Assembly: GCA_963823665.1 (NCBI GenBank)
Contig: CAWGMQ010000006.1
Coordinates: 1,790,865 to 1,822,864, forward strand
DNA length: 32,000 nucleotides
Reading direction: 5' to 3'
From: an uncultured Planctomycetota bacterium
GTDB taxonomy: Bacteria; Planctomycetota; Planctomycetia; Isosphaerales; Isosphaeraceae
A model generated the notes under the pieces. The model searched no databases, was not told the origin of the DNA, and saw only the letters and a list, made by a program, of their open reading frames with translations. The position numbers and the translations under genes are program-made. Of this stretch, positions 1 to 26,308 are shown one piece after another (the first letter of the stretch is position 1; every line of letters begins with the position of its first letter).

Positions 1-1945
1 GACGTGACCGTGCCAACGGCGCCATCATTGAACGCGACCGTGTTATTAGCGGCGGTTGGATCGAAGCCGAAGCCGTTGATGGTGATCTGGGGCGCATTGG
101 CGGCCAGGTGGCCCGTGCTGGCGGTTACCACCGGCGTCACCGTCGCCACTTGAACCGCAGTCCCGCTGCTGATCTTGTCGGTGGTCACGACCGCGGTGAG
201 GCTGCCGGAGGTGGTGGGCTCGGTCGTGAGCGTCACGGTGAACGAAGTGGGGCTGGACTTCGTGACCGTGCCGGCGGCGCCGTTGTTGAACGTGACTGTG
301 TCATTCGCGGCCGTCGCATCGAAGCCCAGGCCATTGATCGTGATCTGGGTCGCGCTCGCGGCTAGCTGGGCCGTGCTGGCAGTCACGACGGGCGTCACCG
401 TCGCCACTTGAACCGCGGCGCCGCTGCTTTGGTTGTCGGTGGTCACCACCGCGGTCAAGCTGCCGGCGGTGGTGGGCCTGGTCGAGAACGTCACGGTCAG
501 CGCGGTTGGGCTCGCCGTCATGACCGTGCCGACCGCGCCGTCGTTGAACGTGATCGTGTTATTGGCGGCGGTCGGATCGAAGCCCAGGCCCTTGATCGTG
601 ACCTGGGTCGCGCTCGCGGCCAGGTCGGCGGTGCTGGCGGTCACGACCGGCGTCACCGTCGCCACTTGCACCGCGGCGCCGCTGCTTTGCTTGTCGGTGG
701 TCACGATGGCGGTCAGGCTGCCGGCGGTGGTGGGCCTGGTCGTGAACGTCACGGTGAGCGCGGCTGGGCTCGCAGTCATGACCGTGCCGGCGGCGCCGTC
801 GTTGAACGTGACCGTGTTATTAGCGGCGGTCGGGTCGAAGCCCAGGCCGTTGATCGTGATCTGGGTCGCGCTCGCGGGTAGCTGGGCTGTGCTGGCGGTC
901 ACCACGGGCGTCACCGTCGCCACTTGCACCGCGGCGCCGCTGCTTTGCTTGTCGGTGGTCACGATGGCGGTCAGGCTGCCGGCGGTGGTGGGCCTGGTCG
1001 AGAACGTCACAGTCAGCGCGGTTGGGCTCGCCGTCATGACCGTGCCGACCGCGCCGTCGTTGAACGTGATCGTGTTATTGGCGGCGGTCGGATCGAAGCC
1101 CAGGCCGTTGATCGTGATCTGCGACGCGCTCGCGGCCAGGTTGGCCGTGCTGGACGTCACCACGGGCGTCACCGTCGCCACTTGCACCGCAGTCCCGCTG
1201 CTGATCTTGTCGGTGGTCACGATGGCGGTCAGGCTACCGGCGGTTGTGGGCTTGGTCGTGAACGTCACGGTGAGCGAAGTCGGGCTGGCCGTCGCGACCG
1301 TGCCGGCGGCGCCGTCGTTGAACGTGACTGTGTCATTGGCGGCGGTCGCATCGAAGCCCAGGCCCTTGATCGTGATCTGGGTCGCGCTCGCGGGTAGCTG
1401 GGCTGTGCTGGCGGTCACCACGGGCGTCACCGTCGCCACTTGCACCGCGGCGCCGCTGCTTTGCTTGTCGGTGGTCACGATGGCGGTCAGGCTGCCGGCC
1501 GTGGTGGGCCTGGTCGAGAACGTCACAGTCAGCGCGGTTGGGCTCGCCGTCATGACCGTGCCGACCGCGCCGTCGTTGAACGTGATCGTGTTATTGGCGG
1601 CGGTCGGATCGAAGCCCAGGCCCTTGATCGTGATCTGGGACGCGCTCGCGGCCAAGTCGGCGGTGCTGGCGGTCACGACCGGCGTCACGGTCGCCACTTG
1701 CACGGCGGCGCCGCTGCTGACGCCGTCCGAGTGGACGATGGCAGTCAGGCTGCCGGCGGTGGTGGGCCTGGTCGAGAACGTTACGGTCAGTGAGTCGAAA
1801 GTCGCGGCCGTGACCGTGCCAATCGCGCCGTCGTTGAATGTGACGGTGTCGTTGGCGACGATCGGATCGAAGGCCACACCGTTGATCGTGATCTGGGTCG
1901 CGCTGGCAGCGAGGTTGGCGGTGCTGGCGGTCGGCACCGGGGTCG
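1..1945. repeat. Coding tandem array with a 258-bp (86-codon) unit, 7 full plus 1 partial copies, and a 516-bp higher-order periodicity
   Basis: The landmark GTCAC(C/G)GTCGCCACTTG recurs at 136, 394, 652, 910, 1168, 1426 and 1684, an exact 258 spacing. Antisense shadow ORFs start at 408, 924 and 1440 (516 spacing). Segments 901-1140 and 1417-1656 are nearly identical by eye. Confidence 0.9.
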
Positions 1946-3473
1946 TGGTGCCGGTCAGGCCGTTGGGCGGGGCCGGGTTGTCGCTGACCAAATTGTGGGT
2001 GCTGCCGGTCAGGCTGGGCGCGAGGGCGCCATCGATGGCGCTCGCGTAGAATTCGCTGACGGTGGTCGAGGCATTCTGGCCGAGGATGCTGTTGACGACG
2101 GTGGCGGTCGCCTTTTCGTTGCTGCCATCGCTGAGGACGTAGACGCCTTCGCCCGCCTGGGCCCCCTGGTCGGTGGTGCCGAACTGGCCCCCGGCGGCGC
2201 CTGAGGCAGTGTTGCCGCGGAAGGTGTCGGAGGTGGCGTTCAGGATGCCGTTGAGAAGGAAGACGGCACCGCCGTATCCGGAGCCGCCGCCGGCGAGCAG
2301 GTCAGTGGGGGATTGGGAAGTAACGATGTTACCGCCGGCGCCGCCGGCGGCGGTGTTGCCGGTGAACGTGTCGCTGGTCAGGGTGAGGGTCCCGCCGTTG
2401 CTGAAGATGCCTCCTCCCAGCCCGGCACCGCCGCCGCCGGCGCCATCGTAACTACTGCCGCCTTCTATGCCGCCGCCACCGCCGAAGCCCCCTCTTCCGG
2501 GATAGAGCCCGTTGGTGGGAGACAGAGGGTTGAAGCCGGCGCCGCCGCCGCCGCCGCCGAAGCCCCCGTTACCGCCATTGCCGCCACCGTGGTCGACCAA
2601 GCCAAAAGTAGTCGGCCAGGAAACGCCCGTACCGCCGCCGCCGCCGCCGCCGCCAAAACCGCCGGAGCCGCCGGGCCCGGTTGTGAGTTGCCCACCGATA
2701 TCGAAGCCGCCGCCGCCGCCGCCGCCGCCGAAGCCGCCGTTTTTGTTGTGGGCGCCGCCATTGAGTCCGCCCCCTTTATCGCCATCCCCTGATGAGGTCG
2801 AGCCAAGGCCTCCGCCACCTCCGCCCGAGCTCGCCGGGTCCGAACCAGGTTGAGCATTTCCTCCGCTGCCGCCTTGGGCGCTGTTATTGACGAAAGTGCA
2901 GCCGTCCGCCTCGAAGACACCTTCGACGAACACCGCGCCGCCCAAACCAGCGCCGCCGCCGCCGCCGCCGCCGAAGGTGCTGTCGCCGGCGCCGCCGGTG
3001 GCTTTCCCGTCTGCCAGAGTCAGGTTGTCGAGCGTCAGCGAGTCGCCGCCGGCCACGACGAACGGCCGCACAGCATTGCCGCCGTTGATGACCAGTCCAG
3101 GCGCCCCGGAGCCTTCGATGGTAATCTTGGTGCCGGACCCGGTGATGTAGAACGCCGTCGGGCCAAACTCTGCGGCAGCCGAGTTGACGTCTTCGGAATT
3201 GAGCTGGATCGTGGAATTGGCGGGCACGCCACTGAACGTGATCACGGCTGCGGGGTCGTGGACGGCCACGGCCGCGGTGATGGCGGCGCCGAGACTGCCC
3301 GTGCCACTGTAATCCGTGTTGGTGACTGAGTACGTGCTGAGCAAGCAGCGATCCTCCAGCAGCTCCAGAAGGTGCTTGCGGGTCCGAAACGCGCCGGATG
3401 GGATGGGCCGGCGGCGAGCGGGCGAGGAGCGGAACAGCGTTCGGAGGGTGGAGAGAAGGATGCGGCGCGGCAT
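1..3473 (-). CDS. Giant secreted/surface protein, C-terminus cut by the left window edge (>=1157 codons). It has a basic N-terminal leader with an LLELLEDRCLLS motif, Gly-rich pmp-like parallel beta-helix repeats, then tandem 86-aa IPT/TIG-like Ig domains
   Basis: Hand translation of the minus frame whose codons have low coordinates divisible by 3. ATG at 3473..3471 gives MPRRILLSTLRTLFRSSPARRRPIPSGAFRTRKHLLELLEDRCLLSTYSVTNTDYSGTGSL... followed by GGAVFVEGVFEADGCTFVNNSAQGG and similar GGA..F..N repeats. The same frame at the left edge reads ...GFGFDPTAANNTVAFNDGAVGTVT. The next upstream in-frame stop is the TGA (3570..3572) of the neighbouring gene. The track lists no minus ORF in this frame, as expected if there is no stop inside the window. 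Confidence 0.85.
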   Translation of the reverse strand, partial: MPRRILLSTLRTLFRSSPARRRPIPSGAFRTRKHLLELLEDRCLLSTYSVTNTDYSGTGSLGAAITAAVAVHDPAAVITFSGVPANSTIQLNSEDVNSAAAEFGPTAFYITGSGTKITIEGSGAPGLVINGGNAVRPFVVAGGDSLTLDNLTLADGKATGGAGDSTFGGGGGGGAGLGGAVFVEGVFEADGCTFVNNSAQGGSGGNAQPGSDPASSGGGGGGLGSTSSGDGDKGGGLNGGAHNKNGGFGGGGGGGGFDIGGQLTTGPGGSGGFGGGGGGGGTGVSWPTTFGLVDHGGGNGGNGGFGGGGGGAGFNPLSPTNGLYPGRGGFGGGGGIEGGSSYDGAGGGGAGLGGGIFSNGGTLTLTSDTFTGNTAAGGAGGNIVTSQSPTDLLAGGGSGYGGAVFLLNGILNATSDTFRGNTASGAAGGQFGTTDQGAQAGEGVYVLSDGSNEKATATVVNSILGQNASTTVSEFYASAIDGALAPSLTGSTHNLVSDNPAPPNGLTGTTTPVPTASTANLAASATQITINGVAFDPIVANDTVTFNDGAIGTVTAATFDSLTVTFSTRPTTAGSLTAIVHSDGVSSGAAVQVATVTPVVTASTADLAASASQITIKGLGFDPTAANNTITFNDGAVGTVMTASPTALTVTFSTRPTTAGSLTAIVTTDKQSSGAAVQVATVTPVVTASTAQLPASATQITIKGLGFDATAANDTVTFNDGAAGTVATASPTSLTVTFTTKPTTAGSLTAIVTTDKISSGTAVQVATVTPVVTSSTANLAASASQITINGLGFDPTAANNTITFNDGAVGTVMTASPTALTVTFSTRPTTAGSLTAIVTTDKQSSGAAVQVATVTPVVTASTAQLPASATQITINGLGFDPTAANNTVTFNDGAAGTVMTASPAALTVTFTTRPTTAGSLTAIVTTDKQSSGAAVQVATVTPVVTASTADLAASATQVTIKGLGFDPTAANNTITFNDGAVGTVMTASPTALTVTFSTRPTTAGSLTAVVTTDNQSSGAAVQVATVTPVVTASTAQLAASATQITINGLGFDATAANDTVTFNNGAAGTVTKSSPTSFTVTLTTEPTTSGSLTAVVTTDKISSGTAVQVATVTPVVTASTGHLAANAPQITINGFGFDPTAANNTVAFNDGAVGTVT

Positions 3474-3569: not shown

Positions 3570-5846
3570 TCATTCCACAGGCAAACGAGCGAACAGATCG
3601 GCAAGGGTTGCTTCGTAGTGTTTCCACCGCGCCAGTGACCGGCGATAGAGCGACTGGCGGACTTGCGTCACGCTGGCGGTTTGTACTGGTCGGACCGTTT
3701 GATGGAAGCGACCGCAGGCCGGCTCCCACTCCAGGCCGCACGCGGCCAGCAGGCGCCGGGCCTCGGTGTCGAAGTCATCGACCAGGTGTTCGTAAACCAC
3801 CTCATGCACCGGCACCGGCAACACGGTGCGCCAGTACTGCATCAGCCGTGCGTAATCACGGCAGCGGCCGGCCAGATGCTTGCGATCGTTGGTCCAGCGA
3901 ATGGTGCGGAAATCGGTCATCCAGCACGAGACCGCGACATCGCGCAGGTCACGGCGAACGTGGATGAAGGTCGCCCGGGGGAACAAGAGTGCCACCAGGC
4001 CCAGATAGAGGTAATTGTCCGGCAGCTTGTCCACGATCCGATCCTTGGCCGCGCCTGGTCCGACGGTGGGGAGGGTCCGGAGCAGCGCCTCGAGGCCGTC
4101 GCGGTGACGCCGGGTCAGTTGCCGCACGGCCCCCGTATCGAGGGCTTCCAGGCAGGGCAGCATCTGGTCGGGGCGGCCCAGTAGCTCGGGTATGGACACG
4201 AATTCCGCGTGGGCCAGGCCCAATTCGCCGGCGCCATGCACCCGCGAATGACTGGCCAGTACCTGCTCGACCAGCGTGGTGCCGGAGCGCGGCATGCCGA
4301 AGACGAACAGCGGCTGCCGGGTGTCGTCGCCTGCCCCTGCCAGGCGATCGAAGAGTTGCGGCGTGAAGCCCGCGATGATCCGGTCGACCAGTGCCGCATG
4401 CCCGTCGGGGTTGTAGTGTTTCCCCTGCTTGCGGCGCTGCGCAAGCGCCAGGGCATTGGCCTGTTCCAGGCAGTCGGCGGCCGCGGCGTACGCGCCCTGG
4501 GCGTCCAGCACCTGGGCCAGGCCGAACAGCAAGCTGCGACGCGCCGGCGAGCGAGGCGGTAGACTCCGATCGTCGGCGCGGCCGCGGCCGCTTCGCCCGA
4601 GCTGGGTTTCGATCGCGTCGCGGTCGATGTCGGGCAACTTGCCGCGGAGCAGCAACGCCAACCGAGCGAGCGGCCCCGGTGCCCGGGGATAGAGCGCCTG
4701 GGCCCGGCGATACCACGCCTCGGCCTCGGCCATATCCCCCAGCTCCTCGTGCAGGCCGCCACTGTTCAGGAGCGCATCCACATATTGTGGTTGCAGTTCA
4801 AGGGCCCGGCGATAGCAGGCGGCGGCCTCGGCGAACCGGCCCTCCTGTTGCAGCGCCCGGCCCAGATGGTTGTGCCCCGGGGAGTGCGTGGGATTCAGCT
4901 CGACGACCCGTTGCCAGCACGACAGCGCGGCGGCGCGGTCCTCGTCGGCGTCATGGGCGTTGGCCAGGTACTGCCACATCGCGGCATCGTCCGGAGCCAG
5001 CTCGACGGCACGGCGGAAGCCGGCATAGGCGTCGGCGCGCTTGCCTTCCAGGAACAAGGCCAGGCCGCGGTTGGCGTGGACCCGCGCCAGCTCACCCGGT
5101 CGCTCCTGGATCAAGCTCGCGGCGCGGAGGGCCTCGTCGTAGGCCGCCTGCGCTTCGCTCCAGCGTTCCAGGGCACGGTACGCGTTGCCCAGGTTGTTGA
5201 GTGCGGCCGGCCTTCGGGGCTCGAGGCGGACGGCCTCCTGGCAGTGCGTCAGGCCCTCCTCGGCTTCGCCCTGATCCACCAGCATCGCGCCGAGGTTGCT
5301 GCGGGCCAGGGGCAGGTTGGGATCGAGCGCGACCGCGGCGCGATACGCCCGGAGAGCCTCGCCGAGCTGACCCAGCTCGTGGAGAGACGTACCGAGGTTG
5401 TTCCGGGCCAGGGCGAAATCGGCACGCATCTCCAGCGCGGCGCGGAACTGCGCGACGGCCTCGGCAAACTGGCCCAGCGCATGCAGCGCGAGGCCGAGGT
5501 TGTTGGCCGCCTCGGGGTAGGCCTGTCGCAGTCTCAGGGCGGTCCGGCAGCAGTCAATGGCCTGTTGGTGCTGGCCGAGCGAGCGGTGGGCCTCGGCCAG
5601 GTTGGCGTGGTAAACGGCGGTATCGGGTTGCAGAGCCACCGCCCGGCCGATCAGCTCGACGGCGCGGGCAAAATACCCGTTCTGGTAATGCAGGACGCCA
5701 AAAAGGTGCAGGGCCTCGGCCTGGTCGGGCTGCCGGACGAGCAGGGTGTGATAAGACCGCGCGGCGTCGGCGAAGCGACCCTCCTGATGGAACTGCCAGG
5801 CGGTCGCGAGGTCGGAAGTGACCACGGTCGTCGCTCCGTGACTCAT
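3570..5846 (-). CDS. TPR-repeat protein with a C-terminal sulfotransferase domain (758 aa)
   Basis: Complete ORF. The N-terminal ~400 aa are TPR-type repeats (AEALHLFGVLHYQNGYFARAVELIGRAVALQPD, ANNLGLALHALGQFAEAVAQFRAALEMRAD, and others). The C-terminal part carries sulfotransferase PAPS-binding signatures FVFGMPRSGTTLVEQVL (5'-PSB loop) and FIHVRRDLRDVAVSCW (3'-PB-like). Confidence 0.9.
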   Translation of the reverse strand: MSHGATTVVTSDLATAWQFHQEGRFADAARSYHTLLVRQPDQAEALHLFGVLHYQNGYFARAVELIGRAVALQPDTAVYHANLAEAHRSLGQHQQAIDCCRTALRLRQAYPEAANNLGLALHALGQFAEAVAQFRAALEMRADFALARNNLGTSLHELGQLGEALRAYRAAVALDPNLPLARSNLGAMLVDQGEAEEGLTHCQEAVRLEPRRPAALNNLGNAYRALERWSEAQAAYDEALRAASLIQERPGELARVHANRGLALFLEGKRADAYAGFRRAVELAPDDAAMWQYLANAHDADEDRAAALSCWQRVVELNPTHSPGHNHLGRALQQEGRFAEAAACYRRALELQPQYVDALLNSGGLHEELGDMAEAEAWYRRAQALYPRAPGPLARLALLLRGKLPDIDRDAIETQLGRSGRGRADDRSLPPRSPARRSLLFGLAQVLDAQGAYAAAADCLEQANALALAQRRKQGKHYNPDGHAALVDRIIAGFTPQLFDRLAGAGDDTRQPLFVFGMPRSGTTLVEQVLASHSRVHGAGELGLAHAEFVSIPELLGRPDQMLPCLEALDTGAVRQLTRRHRDGLEALLRTLPTVGPGAAKDRIVDKLPDNYLYLGLVALLFPRATFIHVRRDLRDVAVSCWMTDFRTIRWTNDRKHLAGRCRDYARLMQYWRTVLPVPVHEVVYEHLVDDFDTEARRLLAACGLEWEPACGRFHQTVRPVQTASVTQVRQSLYRRSLARWKHYEATLADLFARLPVE

Positions 5847-5893
5847 CTCTGAGTTGGTGAATCTGACTTCCCGTTGTTGCTAGTACTGCGGGC

Positions 5894-6065
5894 CGACCGC
5901 GATCCTCGACTGGGTCCTCTCAAAAGTCTCGAACTTGCCAAATTTGGCCTTGCGGCGGTATTTAAGGCTAGCAAGTGGGGTACTCGGGTTGAGGGGGCCG
6001 AATTCCGCGCGGAAGACCCCGGAGACGTGTCCCAACTCGTTGAATCCCGCTGTCCAGAACTTAAG
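5894..6065 (+). promoter_or_regulatory. Conserved sigma-gene leader, copy 1 (decayed arms)
   Basis: 5' arm TACTGCGGG (5894..5902) followed by CCGACCGCGAT. Palindrome TTCCGCGCGGAA at 6003..6014. TTGAATC followed by 3' arm CCCGCtGTc (6046..6054), which has 2 mismatches to the 5' arm. Confidence 0.35.
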
Positions 6066-6232
6066 ATGATCGAGATGTCGCCACCTCCAGGGCAGGTCTC
6101 CGGACTTGTCGCACGCGCCGCGGCAGGCGACCGGGCTGCGATCCTCGAGCTGCTCGAGCGCAAGATGCAGCTCGAGGACGCGCTCAACCGGATGGATCCG
6201 CTCGACCGCGAGATCCTCGTGCTGCGGCACTT
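6066..6232 (+). pseudogene. ECF sigma factor remnant (copy 1) with an internal in-frame deletion and 3' truncation
   Basis: It reads MIEMSPPPGQVSGLVARAAAGDRAAILELLER joined directly to KMQLEDALNRMDPLDREILVLRHF. The intact paralogue 7515..8168 has about 115 codons between ELLER and KMQL. Similarity ends near 6232. Confidence 0.8.
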
Positions 6233-6337
6233 CGACCCGATCTCCGGTCCCGACGGTTTTATTCGACCGCCTTCGGCGCATTGCCCGCCGCTCGTCCCGA
6301 CCGCGTGCGTTCTGTCGCGACTTTCCGGGGTTATGGC

Positions 6338-7258
6338 TCAGCACACGCTCTTGGTCCGACCCAAAAGACAAGATGACGAGGCGGAACGATTGTCCGGTAA
6401 CGTGATTGGCGATCCGTCATCCGAGGATCTTGTCAAGCGGCACGGGCGGCGCGCTGATCTCGCGCATCGCGACCGTGCGAGGGCCAGAATCGCGACCGCG
6501 GTTGTGCCCAAGACCAGGGTTGAGGGCTCGGGGACGGAGGCGATCCGCAAGTTGTCGAACGTTACGTCCACGGCACTGGTCGACCCCATTTGGGCCGAAG
6601 CTACGACACCGCTGAAACCGGAAGTATACGTCGTGTCCGTCGCAGTCACGGTGGCCAAGGCCACGCCCGGTGCGCTCAGGTCGAACAGGCTCGCCGACAG
6701 GTTCGCGCCCACCCCTGTGAAACTAATCTGGTACGACTGAGTCGGGTCGAGCGTCACCGCGACGTCAGAGATGTCGGTCGCGATCTCGTTGGTGATCCGT
6801 TCGATGACCAGGAGGCCCGTGTTCCCACCGTTGCCCGCCGTGAGGTAGAGGGCGACGTAACCGTCGGAGGTGCCGAGGCCGAGGTTGCTCGTTCGCCCCC
6901 CCACGCCGAAGGCTTCGCCCAGCGTGTCGTTCCAGCCCACGATGTCGGCCGAGGTCGAGAAGTTGGTGAGCGACACCGCGGTGTCGATGCTGTACAGCCG
7001 CGCCTGGCCGATGACCGGGACCAGTGCCGACGGCACGCCGGGCGAGGCGAGTTCGTAGCCGTAGTTGCCCGGCGCGAGCAGGGGAAACGTGAAGGAGCCG
7101 CCCGGCTGGCCGGCGACCCCTGCGAGCGGGTTGAAGCGGGTCAGTCCCGCGTCGCTCTGGTTGTTGAAGTCGAACAGGATACCGGCCCGGGCTTCGCCGG
7201 CCAAGGCCAGGCCGATGATCAGAGCGAGCGGCGTCGCGAACGTCTTGGCACATCTCAT
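6338..7258 (-). CDS. PEP-CTERM-motif secreted protein (306 aa as an ORF), with a signal peptide and an uncharacterised beta-rich body
   Basis: N-terminus MRCAKTFATPLALIIGLALAGEARA looks like a signal peptide. Near the C-terminus, VPEPSTLVLGTTAVAILALARSRCARSARRP shows the PEP motif, a hydrophobic helix and a basic cluster. The ORF then continues about 35 further codons. Confidence 0.75.
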   Translation of the reverse strand: MRCAKTFATPLALIIGLALAGEARAGILFDFNNQSDAGLTRFNPLAGVAGQPGGSFTFPLLAPGNYGYELASPGVPSALVPVIGQARLYSIDTAVSLTNFSTSADIVGWNDTLGEAFGVGGRTSNLGLGTSDGYVALYLTAGNGGNTGLLVIERITNEIATDISDVAVTLDPTQSYQISFTGVGANLSASLFDLSAPGVALATVTATDTTYTSGFSGVVASAQMGSTSAVDVTFDNLRIASVPEPSTLVLGTTAVAILALARSRCARSARRPCRLTRSSDDGSPITLPDNRSASSSCLLGRTKSVC

Positions 7259-7328
7259 GTCGTAACCTCTTTGGTCTGCGAGTCACAAATCTCGCCGAGT
7301 TGTTGGGCTTCACTTCCCCCTGCTGTCA

Positions 7329-7514
7329 ATACTCCGGACCGACCGCGATTCTGGACTGAATTCCGTCAAAAAGACCTTTGCGGCGCCATATTTGGCCGCG
7401 AGGCGACATCTAAGGCTCCATTGTGCGATCCCGGGCTGACGAGAGCCCTATTCCGCGCGGAAGGCTGCGGAGACGTGTCGCCAACTCGTTGAAACCCGGA
7501 GTATAGAGCTTAAG
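7329..7514 (+). promoter_or_regulatory. Conserved sigma-gene leader, copy 2
   Basis: 5' arm ATACTCCGG (7329..7337) followed by ACCGACCGCGAT. Palindrome TTCCGCGCGGAA at 7451..7462. TTGAAAC followed by 3' arm CCGGAGTAT (7496..7504), which is a perfect complement of the 5' arm. The ATG lies 10 nt downstream. Confidence 0.5.
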
Positions 7515-15628: not shown

Positions 15629-15702
15629 GCGAACGATCTGTCGATCGCGATCCCTTCGGGGGCATTGCCGAGTCGTTCCTGGCACGGTTCCGGACTGGTT
15701 AA
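15625..15702 (+). pseudogene. N-terminal 25-codon stub of the copy-3 Ser/Thr kinase
   Basis: [25 protein letters not shown] matches [29 protein letters not shown] of copy 4. DNA similarity stops at 15699/15700, where a TAA follows. Confidence 0.8.
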
Positions 15703-15863
15703 CCGTTTGTCGGAGCTGCAGCGTGGCTGACGGCTTCGCCGGGACCATTCTGGCCACTCCCTGCTGGGCCGGACTGATCGCGATCGACAACCCGTGTATA
15801 GCCATTCACATTTGCGCTTACATTTAAACAACGGGTTGCCACACTACCACACTATGTTTGGGA

Positions 15864-15892
15864 TTGACGAGATTCCTGCCGCCTTGTAGATA
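15864..15892 (+). promoter_or_regulatory. Candidate sigma70-like promoter for the methyltransferase gene
   Basis: TTGACG (15864..15869), a 17-nt spacer, then TAGATA (15887..15892), about 68 nt upstream of the ATG at 15960. This is a pattern match only, and the -10 box is weak. Confidence 0.25.
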
Positions 15893-15959
15893 GAGCAAGC
15901 CACCAAGCAGGCCTTTTTGCACCTTTGGTACAAGTGATCACACACAAGTGAGGCTCAAC

Positions 15960-16736: not shown

Positions 16737-16770
16737 CATCAAGGGCCACGCGAAACGGCACGGCCCCGAA

Positions 16771-19260: not shown

Positions 19261-20319
19261 GTCGGCGTCGTAGGGCTGGTAACGGCTGCGGCGCAGCTCC
19301 CGGGCCAGGGCGTTGGCCGGCTCCAGGCAGGCGGCGGCCTCGGCGTGCTCGCCCCGCGCGTCGGCGACATGGGCGAGGGCAAAGAGCAGGTTCATCCGCA
19401 CCACCGGGGCGATCGGCCCGTGCATCGCGAAGCGGAGCCGGTCGCGGTCGGCCTCGGGCAGCCGGCCGCGCACGAGCACCGCCCGCCGCGCCAGCGGCAA
19501 CGGTGACTGCGGATGACGGGTCTCGGCCTCGTGGTAGCACGCCTCGGCCTCGGCCATGGCCCCGAGCTCCTCGTGCAGTGAGCCCAGGCTGATCCACGAG
19601 TCCAGGTGATCGGGTCGCAGCTCCAGGGCGCGGCGATAAGCGGCCTCGGCTTCGGCATGGCGGCCGTCGGACAGGTAGGCCCAGCCGAGCTCGTTGTGCG
19701 CGTCAGCATCGGCCGGCTTCTTCAGGGCGCGGCGCTCGCAAAGCTCAACCGCGGCGGGCCAGTCCTCGGCCTGGCCGTGGACGTAGGCCAATTGCAGCCA
19801 CAGGGCGTCATCTTCGGGGGCCAGCTCGGCGGCCCGGCGCGAATGCGCGAGGGCAACGACCGGCTTGCCCTGCCCAAGGAGCGCCAGGCCCAGGTTGGCG
19901 TGCGCGACGGCCAGGTCGGGCTCTAGCCGGAGGGCCTCGGCATAGGCATCGGCCGCCTCGGCCCACCGCTCCAGGCCGCGCAGAACGTTGCCGAGGTTGT
20001 TGAGCGCCTCGGGGTAGTCCGGCCGCAGGCGGAGGGCCGAGCGGCAGCTTTCGGCGGCTTGCTCGCGCTGGCCCAGGGCACGCTGGATCTCGGCGAAGTT
20101 GGCATGATACGTGGCGACGTCGGGCCGCAGCTCGATGGCCCTGCCCGTTAGCTCGACGGCACGGGCGGAGTAACCGCACTGGTGATGCAAGACGCCAAAC
20201 AGGTGCAGCACGTTAGCGTCATCAGGATCGCGGTCCAGCAGGGCCTGGTAGGTGCGGCCCGCGTCGGCGTAGCGACCGGCCTGATGGCATTCCCAAGCGT
20301 TCATCAAGTCCGGACTCAT
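19261..20319 (-). pseudogene. TPR protein paralogue that has lost its sulfotransferase domain (track ORF 19186..20319)
   Basis: MSPDLMNAWECHQAGRYADAGRTYQALLDRDPDDANVLHLFGVLHHQCGYSARAVEL... is collinear with 3570..5846 as far as ANALARELRRSRYQPYD (compare ANALALAQRRKQGKHYNPDG). The sequence then abuts beta-helix coding sequence in another frame. Confidence 0.8.
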
Positions 20320-20501
20320 CTTGTGACTCCGTCAAGAGCTGCGAGGTTCTGGTTGCATAAGGTCAGGATTGGTTGCACGGCGCGTGGACCGACCTCTCGG
20401 GGCTAACCCGCGGCGACAACGCGACGCTGGTGCTCCGCGGCTCAGACGCTGGTCATCACGATCCCTGGCGGGCCTTGTCCTCTCCTTGGGCTTACCACCT
20501 A

Positions 20502-20580
20502 TACTGCGAGGCGACCGCGATGCTCGCCTGGCTTTGGCTTTTTTTTGTCTCGGTTTATTGAAACTCGCAGTACTGTAAGT
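20502..20580 (+). promoter_or_regulatory. Conserved sigma-gene leader, copy 4 (most compact form)
   Basis: 5' arm TACTGCGAG (20502..20510) followed by GCGACCGCGAT. A T-rich tract follows, then TTGAAAC and the 3' arm CTCGCAGTA (20564..20572). The ATG lies 8 nt downstream. Confidence 0.5.
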
Positions 20581-21234
20581 ATGGACGAGATGTCGCCACC
20601 TCCAGGACAGGTCCCCGGAGTTGTCACGCGGGCCGCGGCGGGCGACCGGGCTGCGATCGTCGTGCTGCTCGAGCGCTACCGCGCCCGGCTTCGCCGGATG
20701 GTGGCGCTGCGGCTGGACCCCCGGCTCCGGGGGCGGGTTGACGCCTCGGACGTGATCCAGGAGGGGTACCTCGATGCGATGCGGCGGCTCGAGGAGTTCA
20801 TCCGGGATCCGGCCGTGCCGTTCTACATCTGGCTGCGGTTCCTGGTTGGCCAGCGGGTGCAGGAGCAGCATCGGCGGCACCTGGGCTCGCCCGGCCGGGA
20901 TGTCGGCCGCGAGGTGTCGATCTACCGGGGCGCGATGCCCGGCGCCAGCACCGGGGCCCTGGCCGCCCGGCTTCTCGGCAAGCTCACGAGCCCCAGCCAG
21001 GCGGCGGTGCGGGCCGAGCGGAAGGTTCGGCTCCAGGAGGCCCTTAACCGCATGGACCCGCTCGACCGCGAGATCCTGGTCTTGCGCCACTACGAGCAGA
21101 TGGCCAACGGCGATGCCGCCGCGGCCTTAGGGCTGAAGTTCAAGGCGGCGAGCAAACGGTACACGCGGGCGCTCGAGCGGCTCGAGAAGGTCCTCAATGC
21201 CTTACCCGGAGACACGTCAGGGCAGGAGCCATGA
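20581..21234 (+). CDS. ECF-type sigma factor (copy 4, 217 aa)
   Basis: MDEMSPPPGQVPGVVTRAAAGDRAAIVVLLERYRARLRRMVALRLDP...LDREILVLRHYEQMANGDAAAALGLKFKAASKRYTRALERLEKV. It is 654 nt long like copies 2 and 3. ATGA overlap with the kinase at 21231..21234. Confidence 0.9.
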   Translation: MDEMSPPPGQVPGVVTRAAAGDRAAIVVLLERYRARLRRMVALRLDPRLRGRVDASDVIQEGYLDAMRRLEEFIRDPAVPFYIWLRFLVGQRVQEQHRRHLGSPGRDVGREVSIYRGAMPGASTGALAARLLGKLTSPSQAAVRAERKVRLQEALNRMDPLDREILVLRHYEQMANGDAAAALGLKFKAASKRYTRALERLEKVLNALPGDTSGQEP

Positions 21235-23759
21235 GCGAGCCATCGGTCGATTGCGATCCTTTCGAGGGCGTAGCGGAGTCGTTCCTGGCGCGGTTCCGGG
21301 CTGGTGAGCGTCCCAGCATCGTCGAGTACGCCGCCCGCCACCCCGAGCTGGCCGACCAGATTCGCAGGCTGCTGCCGGCGCTGGTGATGGTCGAGCAAGA
21401 CCTCTCGATCGACGTCGACGCGGCTCCGGCCGGCCGGGATGCGATCGAGAGCCAGTCGAGGCGGCTGGGTGATTACCGGATCGTGCGTGAGATCGGGCGC
21501 GGCGGCATGGGGGTGGTCTATGAGGCCGAGCAGGTCAGCCTGGGCCGACGGGTGGCGCTCAAAGTTTTGCCCGGCCACGTGGTGGGCGACCGCCATGCCC
21601 TGGAGCGGTTCCGACGGGAGGCGAAGGCCGCAGCGCGGTTGCACCACACCAACATCGTGCCGGTTTTCGAGGTCGGGCAAGAGGGCGAGGTCGCTTTTTA
21701 CGCGATGCAGTTCATTCAGGGCCAAGGGCTCGAGCAGGTCATCGCCGAGCTGCGGCGGCTGCTCGCGCCGGGTCTCGACGCCGGCGAGGCCGGAACGGGC
21801 CGGGCCGAAGGCCTCGAGGCATCGACGACCGTCGGGGCGTCGCGGGTTTCCGTGAAGTCGATCCTCCGGCAGCGCGAGCTCGGCCAGCTTGCGGAATCTG
21901 TGCTGACCGGCCGCCTGATGAGGGACGGGACGGAACGGCCGGCGACCAACCCGCCCACGACGAACGCCGCTGTCGCTACGGAAGGATTCGGCTCAAACGC
22001 GACCGCCGCACTGGCGCCCTTGGCCGCCAAGGAGGGGCAACCTCCGGCTCGCCCCGGTTCCACCAACCTGTCGGGCTCGGCGATGCTGCCGGGCGGCACG
22101 CACATCTCCGAGATCGATTCCTCGGGCCGCCGGCAGCCGTTCTTCCGGAGCGTCGCGCAGATCGGCAGGCAGGCAGCGCAAGGGCTGGCCTACGCGCACT
22201 CACGCGGCATCATCCACCGCGACATCAAGCCGTCGGACCTGCTGCTGGATTCGGCGGGAGTGGTCTGGATCACCGACTTCGGCCTGGCCAAGGCGGAGGA
22301 AGACGGGCTGACCGCGACCGGCGACATCCTGGGGACGTTCCGATACATGGCGCCTGAGCGGTTCCGCGGGCTGGGGGACGCCCGCGCCGATGTCTATGCG
22401 CTGGGGCTGACCCTGTACGAGCTGCTGACCCTCCGGCCGGCGTTCGAATCGTCCGACCGGCTGAAGCTGGTCGAGCAAGTCAAGACCGCAGAGCCAGTCC
22501 ACCCCCGATCGATCGACCGCCACATCCCCCGCGACCTCGAGACGATCGTTCTGAAGGCGATCGAGAAGGAGCCCGGAGCGCGGTACCAGTCGGCCGACGC
22601 GATGGCCGAGGACCTGCGGCGGTTCCTGGCCGACGAGCCGATCAAGGCCCGCCAGGTCAGCACCTCGGAGCGATACTGGCGGTGGGCCAGGCGGAACCCC
22701 GTGATCGCGACACTGGGCGGCGTGCTGGGGATGGTGCTCGTCGCGGTGACGATCGGCTCGACATTGGCGGCGGCTTATTTCAAGGAGTCGGCCCGGCGCG
22801 AGACGAACCTGGCCGCGCGCGAGCAACTGGCGAATCAGCAATCGCAGCGCGATCGGCAAGCGGCCATCGAAGAGCGCGATCATTCGCGCCGGCTGTCCGC
22901 AGGTCTGGCGCTCGACAAGGGGATCGCCCTGGCCGAAGAGGGTCACGCCGACCGGGGCTTGCTCTGGATGCTCGAGGCCCTCAAGACGGCCCCGGACGAA
23001 GCGGAGGGATTTCAGAATGCGGTTCGCTGGAACCTGGGTGCCTGGCTCGGGCAGGTTCACAAGACGCTGCGGATCGTCGATACAGGCGGTCCCTGCGATT
23101 ACGTCGCCTTCAGCCCGGACGGACGATCGTTTGCAACGGGTTTCAATCCACATGACCGTGCGATAGCAACGCCCATCAACCTGTGGGACACCGCCTCGGG
23201 ACAAAAGCTCTCCTCCTTGCCCGGTGCTTTCGCCCCGTTCGCCTTCCGACCGGACGGAAAAGTCCTCGTCGCTCGCGACGACCAGCGCCGCGTCGTTGCC
23301 ATCGATCTGATCACGGGGCGGGTGCTCTGGACGACGTCGCAGCCCCTCGGACAGCACGGGGAATGGATCGAGTTGAGTCCGGACGGCTCAACGGCTTTTG
23401 TCACTTATACTGACAACTCAGAGAGTTGGTGGTTATCGCGACTCGACGTGGCGACGGGCCGGGGCGCGGAGAGCCGATCCGGAGCAGTGGATCGGCTGCT
23501 GCCGCCCCTGACGGCAGGATGGTCGCGATCCGCCGAGTCGAGAACGGTAAGGCGTTCATCGATGTGCTCGACCTCCCCTCGGGCCGGCGAACGGCGAGCT
23601 GGCCAGCCGCCGAGAACGCCCTTTCCCTGTTACTCTTCAGCCCCGACGCCCGGTCGCTGTTCGTGTCGGAAAATAAGCGATCTGTCATCAACCAGAACAA
23701 CAGCTTCTTCGGTCAGGTCTGGGATCCGGGCAAGGGAAGACCGATTACTGCTCCCATGA
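21231..23759 (+). CDS. Ser/Thr kinase, TM helix and first WD40-like region: upstream segment of the frameshifted copy-4 gene (meaningful to about 23470)
   Basis: Kinase motifs are [35 protein letters not shown] and YMAPE. The TM helix is [27 protein letters not shown]. After ...[14 protein letters not shown] the translation turns into low-complexity nonsense, while the -1 frame becomes WD40-like. Confidence 0.9.
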
Positions 23760-26308
23760 CAAGCACGAAGTCCGCTTTTTTTACTCGAGCGGCTGATTGT
23801 CTGGTGACGAATACCAACAACCTGTGGGTCGTACATGATGCCAAGGACGGCCGCGTGAGGGGTGCTGGCCTTCATGCCGGGACTGCTGAATGGCTTGATT
23901 CGCGTCCGTTTGGTCGCACCATGCTTGCCGCGTCCCATCGCGACGTTCATCTGTGGCAGATATCAACGGATTCAGAGCTGGTTCTCCGTGGAGGAACCGA
24001 GTCGCAAGCATCGCTCTCGGGGATCGAACCCGCGAGCCGGATGCGGGATATCACCTCATTCTGGACCGGGCTGTGGACGGACGGGCGAATCGCGATTGCA
24101 CTGGCCAAGCGGGCGGGCGAGCGAGCACTGATCCGATTCTCGGATCCGGCGACGGGACGCACTCTGGGAAGGCCCGCCTCGCACTACCCCGGCTGGAAGT
24201 TCGGTAGCTTCGCAGTCAGTCCCGACGGCCGATGCCTCGCGACCGAGAGCCATCAGGACGGTCGCTTCGCGAGCGAGGTGCGACTCTGGGACGCGAGCAC
24301 GGGCCGGTTGCAGTGCCCGCCGATTCCGCAACTCAACTACGTCGCGGCCCTGGCCTTCCAGTCCGACGGCAAGGTGCTGGCCACCGGCGATTTCTACGGA
24401 CTGGTCCGGCTCTGGGATACCTCGACAGGCCGGGAGATCGGGCATCCGCTTTTTCAATGCGAGATCGTGCTCAGCCTGGCGTTCAGCCCGGATGGCCAGA
24501 TGCTCGCGGTGGGGCTTTCCAACGATCATACCGCCAAACCGGGCGTCCGGGTCTGGGACACCGGGACACGCCAACCCGTCGGCGATTTGCTGCCGAGCAC
24601 CCATCCCGTCAACCGGATTGAATTCCGTCCCGATGGTCGAGCCCTGCTCGTGGATGCCGGTCCCACCACGCGGCTCTGGGATCTGCCCCGACGGCAGACG
24701 ATCGGCGAGCCGATCATTGACGAGGTGTCTTGCGGATTCCGTAGGGATGGTGGGGCGTTCCTCACGGTCGGAAGTGACGGCACGGTCAAACTTCGCGACG
24801 CAGCGACGGCGGCGGTTATTTCCAGCCTGCTCTCCAGCACGTCGCCGGCCACCTGCGCGGCGTTTCGCAGTGATGGTGCGCTCGTCGTCGCGGGGTTCGC
24901 GGATGGCAGCGCCCGGCTCTGCGACCCGGCCACATCGCAGCCGGTCGGTCCACCGCGCTTGCTAAGTCACGGCGTTCATCACGTCGCGTTCGCGCCCGAA
25001 GGCCGGACTTTTGCCGCGATCGACGAGTTCGGCGAAGCCCGCACCTGGCCCGTTGCCGAGCCGGTCCAGGATGCCGAGCTCGCCGACTTGACGCTGCGGA
25101 TCGAGGCCCGGACCGGCCTCCGGATGGACACCGGTCAGGCGATCTCGCGGCTCGACGACCGGGCCTGGCGCGACCGGCTCGAGCGGTTAGGGCAACTCGA
25201 TCCCACCGCGTTGCAGCCGGATGACGATTCCGCCTGGTACGAGTTGATGCTCAGTGAGGCCGAGCGGAACGGCCATGCGTTCGCGGCGCTGTGGCATCTC
25301 GACCGCCTGATCGCCGCGCGGCCCGACGATTGGTCCCTCTATGCGCGCCGGAGGCGTGCGCGGTCCTTGTCCGACAACTCCGACAGGTTCGCCAAGGCCG
25401 CCACGGACTACGGGCAGGCGGAGCGGCTGGGCTCCCGCGAGGAGGTCTTGGATTTCCAGACTCAGTGCGTGGTCGACTGCACCGAAGCCGGGCGCTGGGC
25501 CGAGGCCCTCTGGTATCTCGACCGCCTGATCGCCGCGCGGCCCGAGGACGGTTTCCTGCACGAGGACCGCGCGGCGGTCTTCGGCAAACTGGGGCGCGAG
25601 GCCGACCGCCAGGCCGAGCTTGCCCGCGTCTTCGAGCTGGGGGCCGACCAGGGACTGGTCATTCCCCGGGCCGAGGAGCTCGGCAAGGCAGGCCGCTGGG
25701 CCAAGGCCGCGGTCCTGCTGGCGCACTGCGGCCGGACCGGTCCGCTGAGCCGGGAGCTCGCCCAGGCCTGGGTGATCGCCTGTATGAGGGCGGGTGATCG
25801 CGCGGGCTACCGCGAGGCCTGCGCTGCGTTCATCGCCTGCCATCGACCGGAACCGACGGTCTTCTGGAACACCCTGGCCGCGGCTTCGTTCATTGGCCTG
25901 GGGGCGCAGGGCCTGGACGACTACCAGGTGCCAATACACTGGTGCGAAAACCGGCTTGCCGCCGTCCCCGCGCCGGGCAAGCTGGCTCGTCACCTGTTGG
26001 TGAGCGCCCTGGGAGGACTGCTGCTCCGGGCCGGCCGGGAGGATGAGGCGATCGCGCGCCTGAACGAAGGAATCAACCTCGGAGTAATGGAATTCGCCAC
26101 CGACTGGGCCTTCCTGGCAATGGCGCACGCGCGGAAGGGAAGGATCGAACAAGCCCGCCGCTCACTGGAGCGTCTCCGCGCTGCGGCTCCGGATCCGTTG
26201 GGATCTTTCTGGGAATTCCAGGAGCTGGCCCTCCTGCGGAGCGAGGCCGAGTCAATGCTCTTCGATGCCGGGTTTCCGAGTGACCCGTTTCACGGTTCGA
26301 AGCCGTGA
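23426..26308 (+). CDS. WD40 beta-propeller plus TPR-like helical C-terminal region: downstream segment of the copy-4 kinase gene (meaningful from about 23470)
   Basis: [90 protein letters not shown]. Helical repeats follow (ALWHLDRLIAARPDDW..., ALWYLDRLIAARPEDG...). The protein ends FPSDPFHGSKP*. Confidence 0.85.
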   Translation: MVVIATRRGDGPGRGEPIRSSGSAAAAPDGRMVAIRRVENGKAFIDVLDLPSGRRTASWPAAENALSLLLFSPDARSLFVSENKRSVINQNNSFFGQVWDPGKGRPITAPMTSTKSAFFTRAADCLVTNTNNLWVVHDAKDGRVRGAGLHAGTAEWLDSRPFGRTMLAASHRDVHLWQISTDSELVLRGGTESQASLSGIEPASRMRDITSFWTGLWTDGRIAIALAKRAGERALIRFSDPATGRTLGRPASHYPGWKFGSFAVSPDGRCLATESHQDGRFASEVRLWDASTGRLQCPPIPQLNYVAALAFQSDGKVLATGDFYGLVRLWDTSTGREIGHPLFQCEIVLSLAFSPDGQMLAVGLSNDHTAKPGVRVWDTGTRQPVGDLLPSTHPVNRIEFRPDGRALLVDAGPTTRLWDLPRRQTIGEPIIDEVSCGFRRDGGAFLTVGSDGTVKLRDAATAAVISSLLSSTSPATCAAFRSDGALVVAGFADGSARLCDPATSQPVGPPRLLSHGVHHVAFAPEGRTFAAIDEFGEARTWPVAEPVQDAELADLTLRIEARTGLRMDTGQAISRLDDRAWRDRLERLGQLDPTALQPDDDSAWYELMLSEAERNGHAFAALWHLDRLIAARPDDWSLYARRRRARSLSDNSDRFAKAATDYGQAERLGSREEVLDFQTQCVVDCTEAGRWAEALWYLDRLIAARPEDGFLHEDRAAVFGKLGREADRQAELARVFELGADQGLVIPRAEELGKAGRWAKAAVLLAHCGRTGPLSRELAQAWVIACMRAGDRAGYREACAAFIACHRPEPTVFWNTLAAASFIGLGAQGLDDYQVPIHWCENRLAAVPAPGKLARHLLVSALGGLLLRAGREDEAIARLNEGINLGVMEFATDWAFLAMAHARKGRIEQARRSLERLRAAAPDPLGSFWEFQELALLRSEAESMLFDAGFPSDPFHGSKP

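Follow-up and report, generated by a model that had tools for sequence, protein, structure and literature searches.

The window analysed here, a stretch of 32,000 nucleotides from an uncultured, high-GC Planctomycetota bacterium that probably belongs to the Isosphaeraceae, carries three intact ECF sigma genes, one in-frame sigma stub and three kinase copies, one of which is debris (Table 1). A second copy of the TPR-sulfotransferase/surface-protein pair is also present in a collapsed form. The three sigma ORFs are each exactly 654 nt long and all contain the Pfam domains Sigma70_r2 and r4_2; the family is TIGR02984 (Sig-70_plancto1), against which sigma2 scored 191 bits for a cut-off of 183.75. 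ORF analysis, Pfam and self-BLASTN bear out the three intact copies and the stub that an earlier note had described. The sigma stop codon and the kinase start codon overlap as ATGA in each pair, and from this sequence the two genes are predicted to be translationally coupled.

Table 1. Coordinates of the genes, gene remnants and leaders of the sigma/kinase cluster
Feature	Position	Strand	Basis	Remarks
BH1, secreted repeat protein	1..3473	-		continues past the left edge of the window
TPR-sulfotransferase 1	3570..5846	-	Pfam TPR families, Sulfotransfer_3	intact, 758 aa
Leader 1	5847..6065	+		divergent intergenic region; homologous to sigma2 leader, 75%
Sigma stub	6066..6244	+		codons 1-33 joined in frame to part of region 4, then cut off
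PEP-CTERM secreted protein	6338..7258	-	NCBIfam/Pfam PEP-CTERM, weak matches	
Leader 2 (of sigma2)	7312..7514	+	self-BLASTN, alignment	
Sigma2	7515..8168	+	Pfam r2/r4_2, TIGR02984	intact ECF sigma
Kinase K1	8165..11888	+	Pfam	Pkinase, one TM segment, WD40 propellers
Displaced K1-tail fragment	11889..11943	+	aligns with L001/L002 K1 tail	now non-coding
Aminotransferase class III fusion protein	11990..14362	-	Pfam/NCBIfam	790 aa
Solo leader	14714..14786	+		fifth copy of proximal leader, no sigma gene behind
Leader 3 (of sigma3)	14929..14974	+		proximal part only
Sigma3	14975..15628	+	Pfam	intact; 93.5% aa identity to sigma4
Kinase K2 5' stub	15625..15699	+	self-BLASTN, L069 comparison	25 codons
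Replacement segment in K2	15700..16769	+	GC profile	low-GC (~52%) island
Class I SAM methyltransferase	15948-16736		Pfam Methyltransf_23	within the replacement
Kinase K2 debris	16770..18113	+		three in-frame pieces of WD40/TPR sensor part
BH4 remnant	18285..19260	-	NCBIfam NF041518	second surface-protein gene, C-terminal part, choice-of-anchor Q motif
TPR-sulfotransferase 4 remnant	19261..20319	-	protein alignment, L068 comparison	
Leader 4 (of sigma4)	20320..20580	+		divergent intergenic region
Sigma4	20581..21234	+	Pfam r2/r4_2, NCBIfam	intact
Kinase K3	21231..26308	+		Pkinase, TM segment, WD40 propellers, TPR-like tail; ~1692 aa when rejoined
Last ~130 nt of K1 coding sequence	26310..26440	+		directly behind the K3 stop codon

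Self-BLASTN of the window revealed collinear nucleotide similarity between the copies that takes in their upstream leaders; the E-values, 1e-25 to 0, exclude a chance origin. The sigma2 region matches those of sigma3 (7489-8233 with 14949-15693, 78%) and sigma4 (7489-8712 with 20558-21760, 77%), and the latter two match each other at 92.8% (14932-15699 with 20541-21305). The stub aligns in two blocks (5866-6160 with 7312-7609, 75%; 6155-6244 with 7949-8038, 88%) and corresponds to an in-frame internal deletion at a direct repeat, the GAGCGC motif. Its 3′ cut is a rearrangement junction, because orthology to the related contigs L001 and L002 begins at 6228. The solo leader lies about 146 nt from the sigma3 leader and matches 20491-20564 at 85% and positions 1881-1953 of contig L069 at 89%. 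No module fragments beyond those listed were found in the window.

The translated BH1 shows an N-terminal LEDR-type leader followed by a Gly-rich putative beta-helix part, for which no Pfam match was obtained, and at least 7.5 tandem IPT/TIG-like repeats of 86 aa (258 nt) at 5-1932. Orthologues of BH1 (89% nt) and of TPR-sulfotransferase 1 are found in contig L071. The recurrence of this pair as a collapsed remnant left of sigma4, proposed in the earlier note, was confirmed by self-BLASTN at 65-71% (2000-2403 with 18884-19260, at 68%; 4430-5204 with 19287-20007; 5458-5805 with 19955-20302), and the strings quoted there were located at 2044/2074 and 18958. The segment 18884-19260 of the BH4 remnant is 80% identical to 3577-3944 of contig L068. 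The TPR-sulfotransferase 4 remnant, which keeps the TPR part minus three repeats, has lost the sulfotransferase domain and is joined out of frame to the BH4 remnant; it is 83-84% identical to L068 7677-9058, and L068 3945-7676 is absent from the window. The conserved divergent partner of sigma2 is the PEP-CTERM gene, which lies outside the repeated unit and has an orthologue at the same position in L001 (90% aa). The aminotransferase gene is a passenger unrelated to the module: the sigma gene next to it in the window is absent from all 80 related metagenome loci. A neighbouring MFS gene is clearly degraded, an instance of real decay in the region.

In the kinases, a Hanks kinase domain in the cytoplasm is linked by a single TM helix to a large WD40/TPR sensor in the periplasm; no anti-sigma domain was detected in their N-termini. 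K1 and K3 possess the catalytic motifs GxGxxG, VALK, HRDIKPSN, DFG and APE. Three kinase copies do exist, as had been noted, but neither K1 nor K3, both taken for intact, is a single ORF. In K1 a single additional base at 9551 breaks the reading frame; furthermore, the gene lacks about 290 nt of its C-terminal tail, and this deletion creates the stop at 11886-11888. The end of its coding sequence is stranded behind K3, where it matches L001 12565-12694 at 90%, L002 at 88.6% and L069 5820-5948 at 88.5%. These alignments place about 14.4 kb (~11944-26309) inside the 3′ end of K1. K3 is interrupted where the G-run at 23461-23464 is one nucleotide short, and its orthologue P0121 (1641 aa, 87% aa) is in frame. 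In K2, the replacement segment occupies the place of 1.7 kb of kinase domain and TM segment in the orthologue (L069 6798-8525, absent from the window), and two more internal deletions of about 1.1 and 0.6 kb are found in the debris. Its pieces 16770-16935, 16944-17320 and 17328-18135 match K3 at 23082-23247, 24386-24765 and 25379-26179 (73-76%, self-BLASTN) with dN/dS of 0.24-0.45, and share 91-94% of their nucleotides with an undamaged orthologue of 1670 aa (P0131/L069).

Five related metagenomic contigs, 88-91% identical in nucleotides where orthologous, each hold an intact version of some part that is decayed in the window; they are error-prone assemblies, and two of them, L001 and L002, cannot count as independent at 98% identity. 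L001 and L002 correspond to the PEP-CTERM gene divergent from sigma2-K1, with a dN/dS of 0.13 between sigma2 and its L001 orthologue. L068 is the uncollapsed orthologue of BH4 and TPR-sulfotransferase 4 divergent from sigma4-K3, its left side intact; L069 carries K1, sigma3 and an intact K2 in this order, and L071 the BH1/TPR-sulfotransferase 1 pair. The dS values are about 0.6-0.9 between paralogues, given more closely as 0.63-0.84, and 0.25-0.37 between orthologues. The paralogues therefore predate the species split: they are old, and the damage to them is recent and specific to the host lineage. Sigma3 and sigma4 diverge from each other (dS 0.15, dN/dS 0.23) less than each does from its positional orthologue (0.20 and 0.28), differences of about two standard errors as support for conversion after the split. 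K3 shows a mosaic dS to the K2 orthologue, of 0.21-0.29 in the N-terminus and C-lobe and 0.5-1.3 elsewhere.

Each of the two 1-nt frameshifts probably reflects either a consensus error from long reads or a lesion of very recent date. We give slightly better than even odds to an assembly artefact, in which both shifts, and perhaps the unusual junctions too, would have arisen as long-read metagenome assembly errors and the true K1 and K3 would be intact. The extra K1 base, in GAGCG[C]GTAC where L001 reads CGC-TAC and L069 CGG-TAC, resembles a merger of two alleles and recurs in L002 yet not in the nearly identical L001; the K3 frameshift falls in a G homopolymer. Moreover, the frames past the two sites are open for 780 and 950 codons, that of K1 having no stop codons and a dN/dS of 0.32, and split genes are numerous in related ENA contigs. 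Against this, the other long genes in the window, about 12 kb of sequence, contain no frameshift, and the degraded MFS gene attests real decay nearby. Consensus errors cannot produce deletions of kilobases, the low-GC replacement or the split in the K1 tail, and copies merely 75% identical do not collapse during assembly. A conserved K1 frameshift of biological origin, either as a programmed +1 event at CGC-GUA-C, with its rare Val codon, or as a deliberately split kinase/sensor, is very improbable. The same extra base does occur in two assemblies distinct at the species level (the window and L002), purifying selection acts on either side of it, and GTA codons are rare in a genome of 67% GC. 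However, L001, L069 and all paralogues are in frame at this site, the P-site tRNA would have no slippery re-pairing option, and no start codon lies near the frameshift in the downstream frame.

As for the cluster as a whole, the abundance of WD40, TPR and kinase domains in planctomycetes (PMC11032199) could suggest mere protein-domain sharing between unrelated genes, a reading that would have undone the homology claimed in the earlier note. The collinear similarity through non-coding leaders and intergenic regions and over gene boundaries refutes this reading and leaves it a negligible probability. The model of that note, one divergent locus serially duplicated in place to give a graded decay series, is unlikely and, taken over the entire array, mostly refuted. 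In its favour, all copies are homologous at the DNA level, leaders included, and the K1-sigma3-K2 order is common to L069, so that some of the array goes back to an old tandem arrangement. The proposed whole divergent unit does exist twice, as L068 illustrates, but among the four sigma copies just the stub and sigma4 have TPR/surface-protein neighbours, and the genes left of modules 2 and 3, the PEP-CTERM and aminotransferase genes, are unrelated. For every module a separate orthologue exists in related genomes, paralogue dS far exceeds orthologue dS, a 14.4-kb block interrupts the K1 tail, and the sole recent-looking pair, sigma3/sigma4, is attached to kinases with dS of 0.63-0.8. The suggestion that the series reveals which parts are dispensable is likewise weakened by an inconsistent order of loss: L071 has wholly lost sigma and kinase and kept the left side, and L069 keeps a kinase behind a sigma stub.

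We thus consider it likely, as one joint explanation, that the cluster consists of four paralogous two-gene ECF sigma/Ser-Thr kinase operons in differing states of decay, shaped by birth-and-death and gene conversion in a recombination-prone region, and that conversion homogenised sigma3/sigma4 and the cytoplasmic parts of the kinases (N-terminus and C-lobe; dS 0.15-0.29). On this explanation, illegitimate recombination with breakpoints inside sigma and kinase genes brought or kept the modules together in the host lineage, two of them having been duplicated jointly with their divergent left-hand genes. Recent deletions left the sigma stub, the K2 debris, the collapsed TPR/surface-protein pair and the truncated K1 tail, and a foreign methyltransferase now stands where the K2 kinase domain was. 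The order of rearrangements is only partly resolvable, as the K1 end precedes sigma3-K2 in L069 but follows K3 in the window.

By analogy, the kinase would sense a periplasmic signal and phosphorylate its own sigma factor, the likely site being the Ser of a conserved DASD motif in sigma region 2.2. Among 123 family sequences, the surrounding motif could be placed in 110, and 106 of these have DASD. The phosphorylated sigma factor could then bind core RNA polymerase and would drive its own operon, possibly also the divergent TPR-sulfotransferase/secreted repeat-protein operon. Of the 65 TPR-sulfotransferase loci in reference genomes, only about 5 have a divergent STK gene beside them, with other sigma classes or none. 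Regulatory coupling in cis to the divergent operon is putative, because the pair in L071 persists with no adjoining sigma or kinase gene.

The system is the known planctomycete ECF sigma/STK pairing and shows gene-family turnover of an ordinary sort, not a new kind of system. Birth-and-death and concerted evolution of multigene families are set against each other in the framework of Nei and Rooney. As in birth-and-death families, the window holds old duplicates, pseudogenes and stubs; as in concerted evolution, paralogues within the genome are closer to each other than to their positional orthologues. Unlike either mode alone, both act within one two-gene operon on different segments, sigma and the cytoplasmic kinase parts being homogenised while the sensor parts diverge. 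STK-linked ECF groups devoid of anti-sigma factors are established (PMC7826278, PMC8999054), and the earlier note was right to call this a planctomycete trait. In the planctomycete groups ECFSTK1-4 (ECF59-62, ECF217; Jogler et al. 2012, Casas-Pastor et al. 2021), an ECF sigma gene is likewise followed by a membrane Hanks-type STK; the missing anti-sigma gene and the planctomycete host are shared as well (PMC7826278). The window sigma factors match TIGR02984, "Planctomycetaceae-specific subfamily 1", and are assigned at this family level, with no ECF group number. Unlike the single pairs of those groups, they form a cluster of four copies in which decay and homogenisation have each affected a part.

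[quoted passage not shown] ECF43 factors are devoid of any acidic motif (STTA in EcfP), whereas the window sigma factors keep two acidic residues (D-A-S-D) and thus may not be intrinsically inactive like EcfP. The window kinases differ from the ECF43 systems by their huge WD40/TPR periplasmic domains, and phosphorylation of the window sigma factors is putative. Finally, a lineage-specific expansion of WD40/TPR-bearing membrane Ser/Thr kinases is known in Planctomycetota and Myxobacteria, with which the window shares the cytoplasmic Pkinase, single TM helix and periplasmic WD40/TPR arrays; this expansion grew via duplication and recombination, some copies adjoining (PMC11032199). That work is a proteome-level survey, to which the window adds breakpoints at the nucleotide level, conversion tracts and pseudogenes.

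The three intact sigma genes of 654 nt announced by the earlier note were found in the window, each product carrying Sigma70_r2 and Sigma70_r4_2, and the sequence strings quoted there were also recovered. Self-BLASTN gave collinear matches for the sigma stub, the kinase debris and the collapsed TPR/surface-protein remnant, and these features are thus real. sigma2 is 77-78% identical in nucleotides to sigma3 and sigma4, collinearly and with the upstream leaders included, and sigma3 and sigma4 share 92.8% over 768 nt. E-values of 1e-25 to 0 exclude chance, and the likeness of the non-coding leaders excludes mere domain sharing. The observation as a whole stands, far above chance level. A tBLASTN search with all module proteins revealed no additional fragments in the window.

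Coordinates of the features of the array and its right flank (window positions; identities are nucleotide identities)
Feature	Position	Strand	Description
sigma stub	6066-6244	+	leader and codons 1-33, continued in frame by part of region 4; junction at a repeated GAGCGC motif
sigma2	7515-8168		654 nt, 217 aa; Sigma70_r2 + Sigma70_r4_2
K1 (kinase after sigma2)	8165-9574 and 9369-11888		two ORFs, split at 9551
aminotransferase fusion	11990-14362	-	790 aa; class III aminotransferase + C-terminal Rossmann-like domain (weak Shikimate_DH match)
fifth leader copy	14714-14786		sigma-less
insert	14787-14928		~146 nt; two GC-rich hairpins, CCAGGGCGTTGCCCTGG and GCCCCTTCGGGGC
sigma3	14975-15628		654 nt, 217 aa; Sigma70_r2 + Sigma70_r4_2
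K2 debris (kinase after sigma3)	15625-15699 and 16770-18113		65-76% to intact counterpart (range shared with the TPR/surface-protein remnant)
segment replacing K2 kinase domain/TM	15700-16769		~1.07 kb
low-GC island	15790-16740		class I SAM-dependent methyltransferase gene, AT-rich upstream region
TPR/surface-protein collapsed remnant	18285-20319		65-76% to intact counterparts (range shared with the K2 debris)
sigma4	20581-21234		654 nt, 217 aa; Sigma70_r2 + Sigma70_r4_2
K3 (kinase after sigma4)	21231-23759 and 23426-26308		two ORFs, split in G-run 23461-23464
MarR-family regulator gene	26477-27106	-	apparently intact
MFS_1 transporter pseudogene	27651-28670		adjoins the MarR gene
right-hand stretch	28700-32000		~3.3 kb, ~60% GC

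All three intact copies have the make-up of ECF (group IV) sigma-70 factors (domains sigma2 and sigma4 only, ~200 aa), and TIGR02937 matched the window sigma proteins with E-values of 6e-23 and 3e-18. On profile scores, they would be placed in TIGR02984 'Sig-70_plancto1': in an NCBIfam scan that covered sigma2 and sigma4, sigma2 exceeded the curated cut-off (183.75 bits) with 191.2 bits, and sigma4, with 183.2 bits, fell 0.5 bit short. The nearest named relatives are Paludisphaera, Aquisphaera and Isosphaeraceae MAGs. The three copies share the region 2.2 motif D-A-S-D with 106 of the 110 family members that have a locatable motif; compared with DAED, Ser stands for Glu only, and both Asp are kept in sigma2, sigma3 and sigma4. 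Of the 14 residue differences between sigma3 and sigma4, one is beside the region 4 recognition helix; the region 2.4 stretch has none. The two are probably alike in promoter specificity.

At every intact sigma gene, the stop codon overlaps the start codon of a Ser/Thr kinase gene (ATGA). No ORF separates sigma and kinase genes in the window, and no anti-sigma Pfam domain was detected in the kinase N-termini or neighbouring genes, a scan that a novel type could escape. The proposed pairing of sigma factor and Ser/Thr kinase without anti-sigma factor was therefore borne out; such a kinase gene adjoins the sigma gene likewise in the related metagenomic contigs L001, L068 and L069, as in the STK-regulated ECF groups. 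K1 and K3 carry the Hanks catalytic motifs GRGGMG, VALKVL, HRDIKPS(N/D), ITDFG and YMAPE (Pkinase E-values 8.5e-46 and 5.7e-39, respectively). The kinases have a single transmembrane segment and long arrays of WD40 propellers, with a TPR-like tail also in K2 and K3. A conserved extension of ~60 aa without Pfam match, a candidate for sigma docking, precedes the kinase domain (8165-8400 and 21231-21450) and lies within a homogenised tract.

Three kinase copies exist, one of them debris, as had been described, but the two taken as intact, K1 and K3, are each split and not one ORF. K2 is devoid of its entire kinase domain. Relative to the L069 orthologue, three internal segments are gone, the first comprising the kinase domain and TM helix; the segment that stands in for them contains the low-GC island and the methyltransferase gene. 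The dN/dS of the K2 debris against K3 (0.24-0.45) indicates that K2 was functional through most of its history. The island has a GC content of ~52%, compared with ~67% in the window as a whole. Neither a transposase nor repeats at its flanks were seen, and it was probably acquired horizontally. K1 has additionally lost ~290 nt of its tail by a deletion at a short microhomology, which made its present stop codon.

In-frame sigma stubs arose independently in two genomes, the window and L069, at CTCGAGCG, a motif with three occurrences within the sigma gene. Both stubs (window 6155-6161, L069 2059-2068) have in-frame internal sigma deletions with a common 5′ breakpoint at this motif. Direct 26-nt copies of the leader core, TTTTT(T/C)GTCTCCGTTT(G/A)TTGAAAC, flank the insert that follows the fifth leader copy; it may be either a small mobile element that duplicated its target or the product of a local duplication. 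Rfam gave no match in the window, so the conserved leader belongs to no known RNA family, and no tRNA was found. The element TTGAAA(C)-N16-TA(A/C)(G/T)(A/T)T is present at 7489-7516, 14949-14976 and 20558-20585 and is conserved in the leaders of L001, L068, L069 and L071. Its last bases touch or overlap the annotated start codon in each sigma copy and orthologue, and 9 nt past that start there is another in-frame ATG, replaced by CTG in sigma3. A sigma-70-type promoter scan retrieved TTGAAA-N16-TAAGAT/TACTAT at the sigma2 and sigma3 starts, i.e. two hits versus 2.0 in shuffled sequence. The sigma mRNA may be leaderless, starting from this element.

The TPR-sulfotransferase left of the stub (TPR-ST1) is a 758-aa protein with TPR and Sulfotransfer_3 domains, whose best match among GTDB representatives reaches 59%. 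The secreted protein beside it is Gly-rich, contains at least 7.5 tandem 86-aa repeats, and has a putative 'beta-helix' fold. These neighbours are found at the stub and at sigma4, but not at sigma2 or sigma3. The suggestion that the duplicated unit was the whole divergent locus holds in part, since whole-unit duplication happened once but not throughout the array. sigma2 lies opposite a PEP-CTERM protein gene, a pairing kept in relatives, and sigma3 opposite the aminotransferase fusion gene. The fusion has the PigE aminotransferase part as best NCBIfam match, and its architecture is widespread in metagenomes (identity up to 69%). It was considered as a module partner and rejected as a passenger gene, because this sigma gene adjoins it at none of 80 related loci.

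Orthologues of the parts of the array occur in five related metagenomic contigs. L001 and L002, which are 98% identical, match window 6228-11884 at 88-89%, with the PEP-CTERM gene divergent from sigma2 and K1. Their K1 ORF runs on into the TPR-like tail, and the final ~130 nt of this tail correspond to window 26310-26440, directly past the K3 stop. Thus, window ~11944-26309 sits inside the K1 3′ end; within this block lie, in order, the aminotransferase gene, sigma3 and the K2 debris with the methyltransferase, then the TPR/surface-protein remnant, sigma4 and K3. L068 matches window 20478-26309 at 90.4% and has K3 in frame (1641 aa). Its left side is uncollapsed and comprises surface-protein genes as well as a full TPR-sulfotransferase; of this side the window lacks ~3.7 kb and three TPR units. 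L069 carries an intact K2 orthologue of 1670 aa, 91-94% identical in nucleotides to the window debris, and its gene order is K1, then directly sigma3-K2. The L069 stub retains the ATGA overlap and is fused to a chimeric kinase (2119-5943), K2/K3-like over the N-terminal ~860 nt (77%) and a K1 orthologue in the remainder (88.5%), with the TPR-like tail deleted in frame. This chimera is evidence for unequal recombination among tandem paralogues in a relative. Finally, L071 is an 89% orthologue of window 3-5784, whose divergent side consists of a 112-nt leader only, the sigma and kinase genes being gone.

Nei-Gojobori estimates of dS between paralogues were 0.75-0.79 for sigma2 versus sigma3/4, 0.84 for the kinase domains of K1 and K3, 0.63-0.80 for the K2 debris versus K3, and 0.84 for TPR-ST1 versus the remnant near sigma4. 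Orthologues in the window and L001 differ by 0.25-0.37. The duplications are therefore older than the split from the relatives, and the lesions restricted to the window are younger. In a tandem duplication the copies of the array should be mutually closest, but sigma2/K1, K2, K3 and TPR-ST1 have closer orthologues elsewhere, so the earlier note's local graded series does not hold. sigma3 and sigma4 are the only mutually closest pair. Their dS is 0.15, against 0.20 and 0.28, respectively, to their positional orthologues; those orthologues are only 0.22 apart, although the sensors of the attached kinases stand at 0.6-1.3. Between K3 and the K2 orthologue, dS is 0.29 over the first 60 codons, 0.5 to >1 in the N-lobe and insert, 0.21-0.29 in the C-lobe and juxtamembrane part, and 0.5-1.3 in the periplasmic part. 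Within-genome paralogues closer than positional orthologues, together with a mosaic dS along the gene, mark concerted evolution or gene conversion. Both were seen, in sigma3/sigma4 and in the kinases, with a modest statistical margin on the timing. A mosaic of this kind is characteristic of segment exchange or gene conversion limited to the cytoplasmic signalling parts. The old paralogues thus form a recombination-prone cluster, subject both to birth-and-death and to concerted evolution.

To the right of the array, the N-terminus and middle of the MFS_1 pseudogene are in different frames, and the C-terminal half of the profile is absent. In the stretch beyond, which may be degraded or non-coding, there is a 12/24/36-nt tandem repeat (30729-30827), and none of its ORFs matches Pfam.

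The splits in K1 and K3 could be genuine lesions or could stem from the assembly, and we lean cautiously towards an assembly artefact. The K1 site reads GAGCGCGTACTGG in the window and GAGCGCGTGCTGG in L002, versus GAGCGC-TACTGG in L001 and GAGCG-GTACTGG in L069, and all paralogues are in frame there. The extra base resembles a CGC/CGG ambiguity entered twice; its recurrence in L002, yet not in the nearly identical L001, suggests a context-specific consensus error. Past the shift, the K1 frame stays open for 780 codons with a dN/dS of 0.32. At the K3 site a G homopolymer is one base short, and the orthologue keeps the frame. Split genes are numerous in related ENA contigs, which bear long-read-style names. 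However, other long genes of the window, ~12 kb in all, are free of frameshifts, and the MFS transporter gene nearby is clearly degraded. If real, the K1 and K3 shifts are very young. Putative pseudogenes in long-read metagenome assemblies call for read-level confirmation.

What is observed is the sigma-kinase operon itself, with no anti-sigma factor, intact catalytic motifs and a conserved Ser in the DAED position. By analogy with EcfP/PknT, EcfK/PknS and the planctomycete STK-linked ECF groups, the kinase would activate its sigma factor by phosphorylation. We hypothesise that the divergent TPR-sulfotransferase operon is under a regulatory link to the sigma/kinase pair. The divergent arrangement recurs in L068 and L070. 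A divergent STK occurs at ~5 of 65 reference TPR-sulfotransferase loci, where the sigma class differs or a sigma gene is absent, and L071 keeps the left-hand genes without any sigma gene. The case for a general pairing is suggestive, not convincing. It is possible, if unlikely, that sigma3 and sigma4 form a 'many sensors, one sigma' hub with the TPR-sulfotransferase/secreted repeat-protein operon as regulated output. Conversion would hold the sigma factor, the kinase N-terminal extension and the C-lobe near-identical, with periplasmic WD40/TPR sensors long diverged, so that different sensors would feed one promoter specificity. The kinase-orphaned sigma3 would remain functional because the neighbouring K3 could phosphorylate it in trans.

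The locus provides a base-level view of turnover in the very large ECF sigma and Ser/Thr kinase repertoires of planctomycetes: breakpoints fall inside sigma and kinase genes, sensor domains are lost via in-frame repeat deletions, and cytoplasmic signalling parts are homogenised while sensors diverge. This is useful for annotating and counting such genes, or for studying crosstalk between paralogous sigma/kinase pairs. What it chiefly adds is anatomy at nucleotide level and a caveat for frameshifts found in long-read assemblies. The expansion of such kinases through duplication and recombination is already documented (PMC11032199). The signalling system itself is of a known kind and reveals no new mechanism: EcfP/PknT and EcfK/PknS are precedents for sigma activation by kinase phosphorylation (PMC8999054, PMC13147305), and planctomycete ECF groups are linked to STKs (PMC7826278). 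In the EcfP-like ECF43 the acidic DAED motif is lost to Ser/Thr, whereas the window sigma factors have DASD and are therefore not filed as ECF43. With the STK-regulated groups as a whole (ECF43, ECF59-62, ECF217), they share the conserved adjacent Ser/Thr kinase gene and no co-encoded anti-sigma factor.
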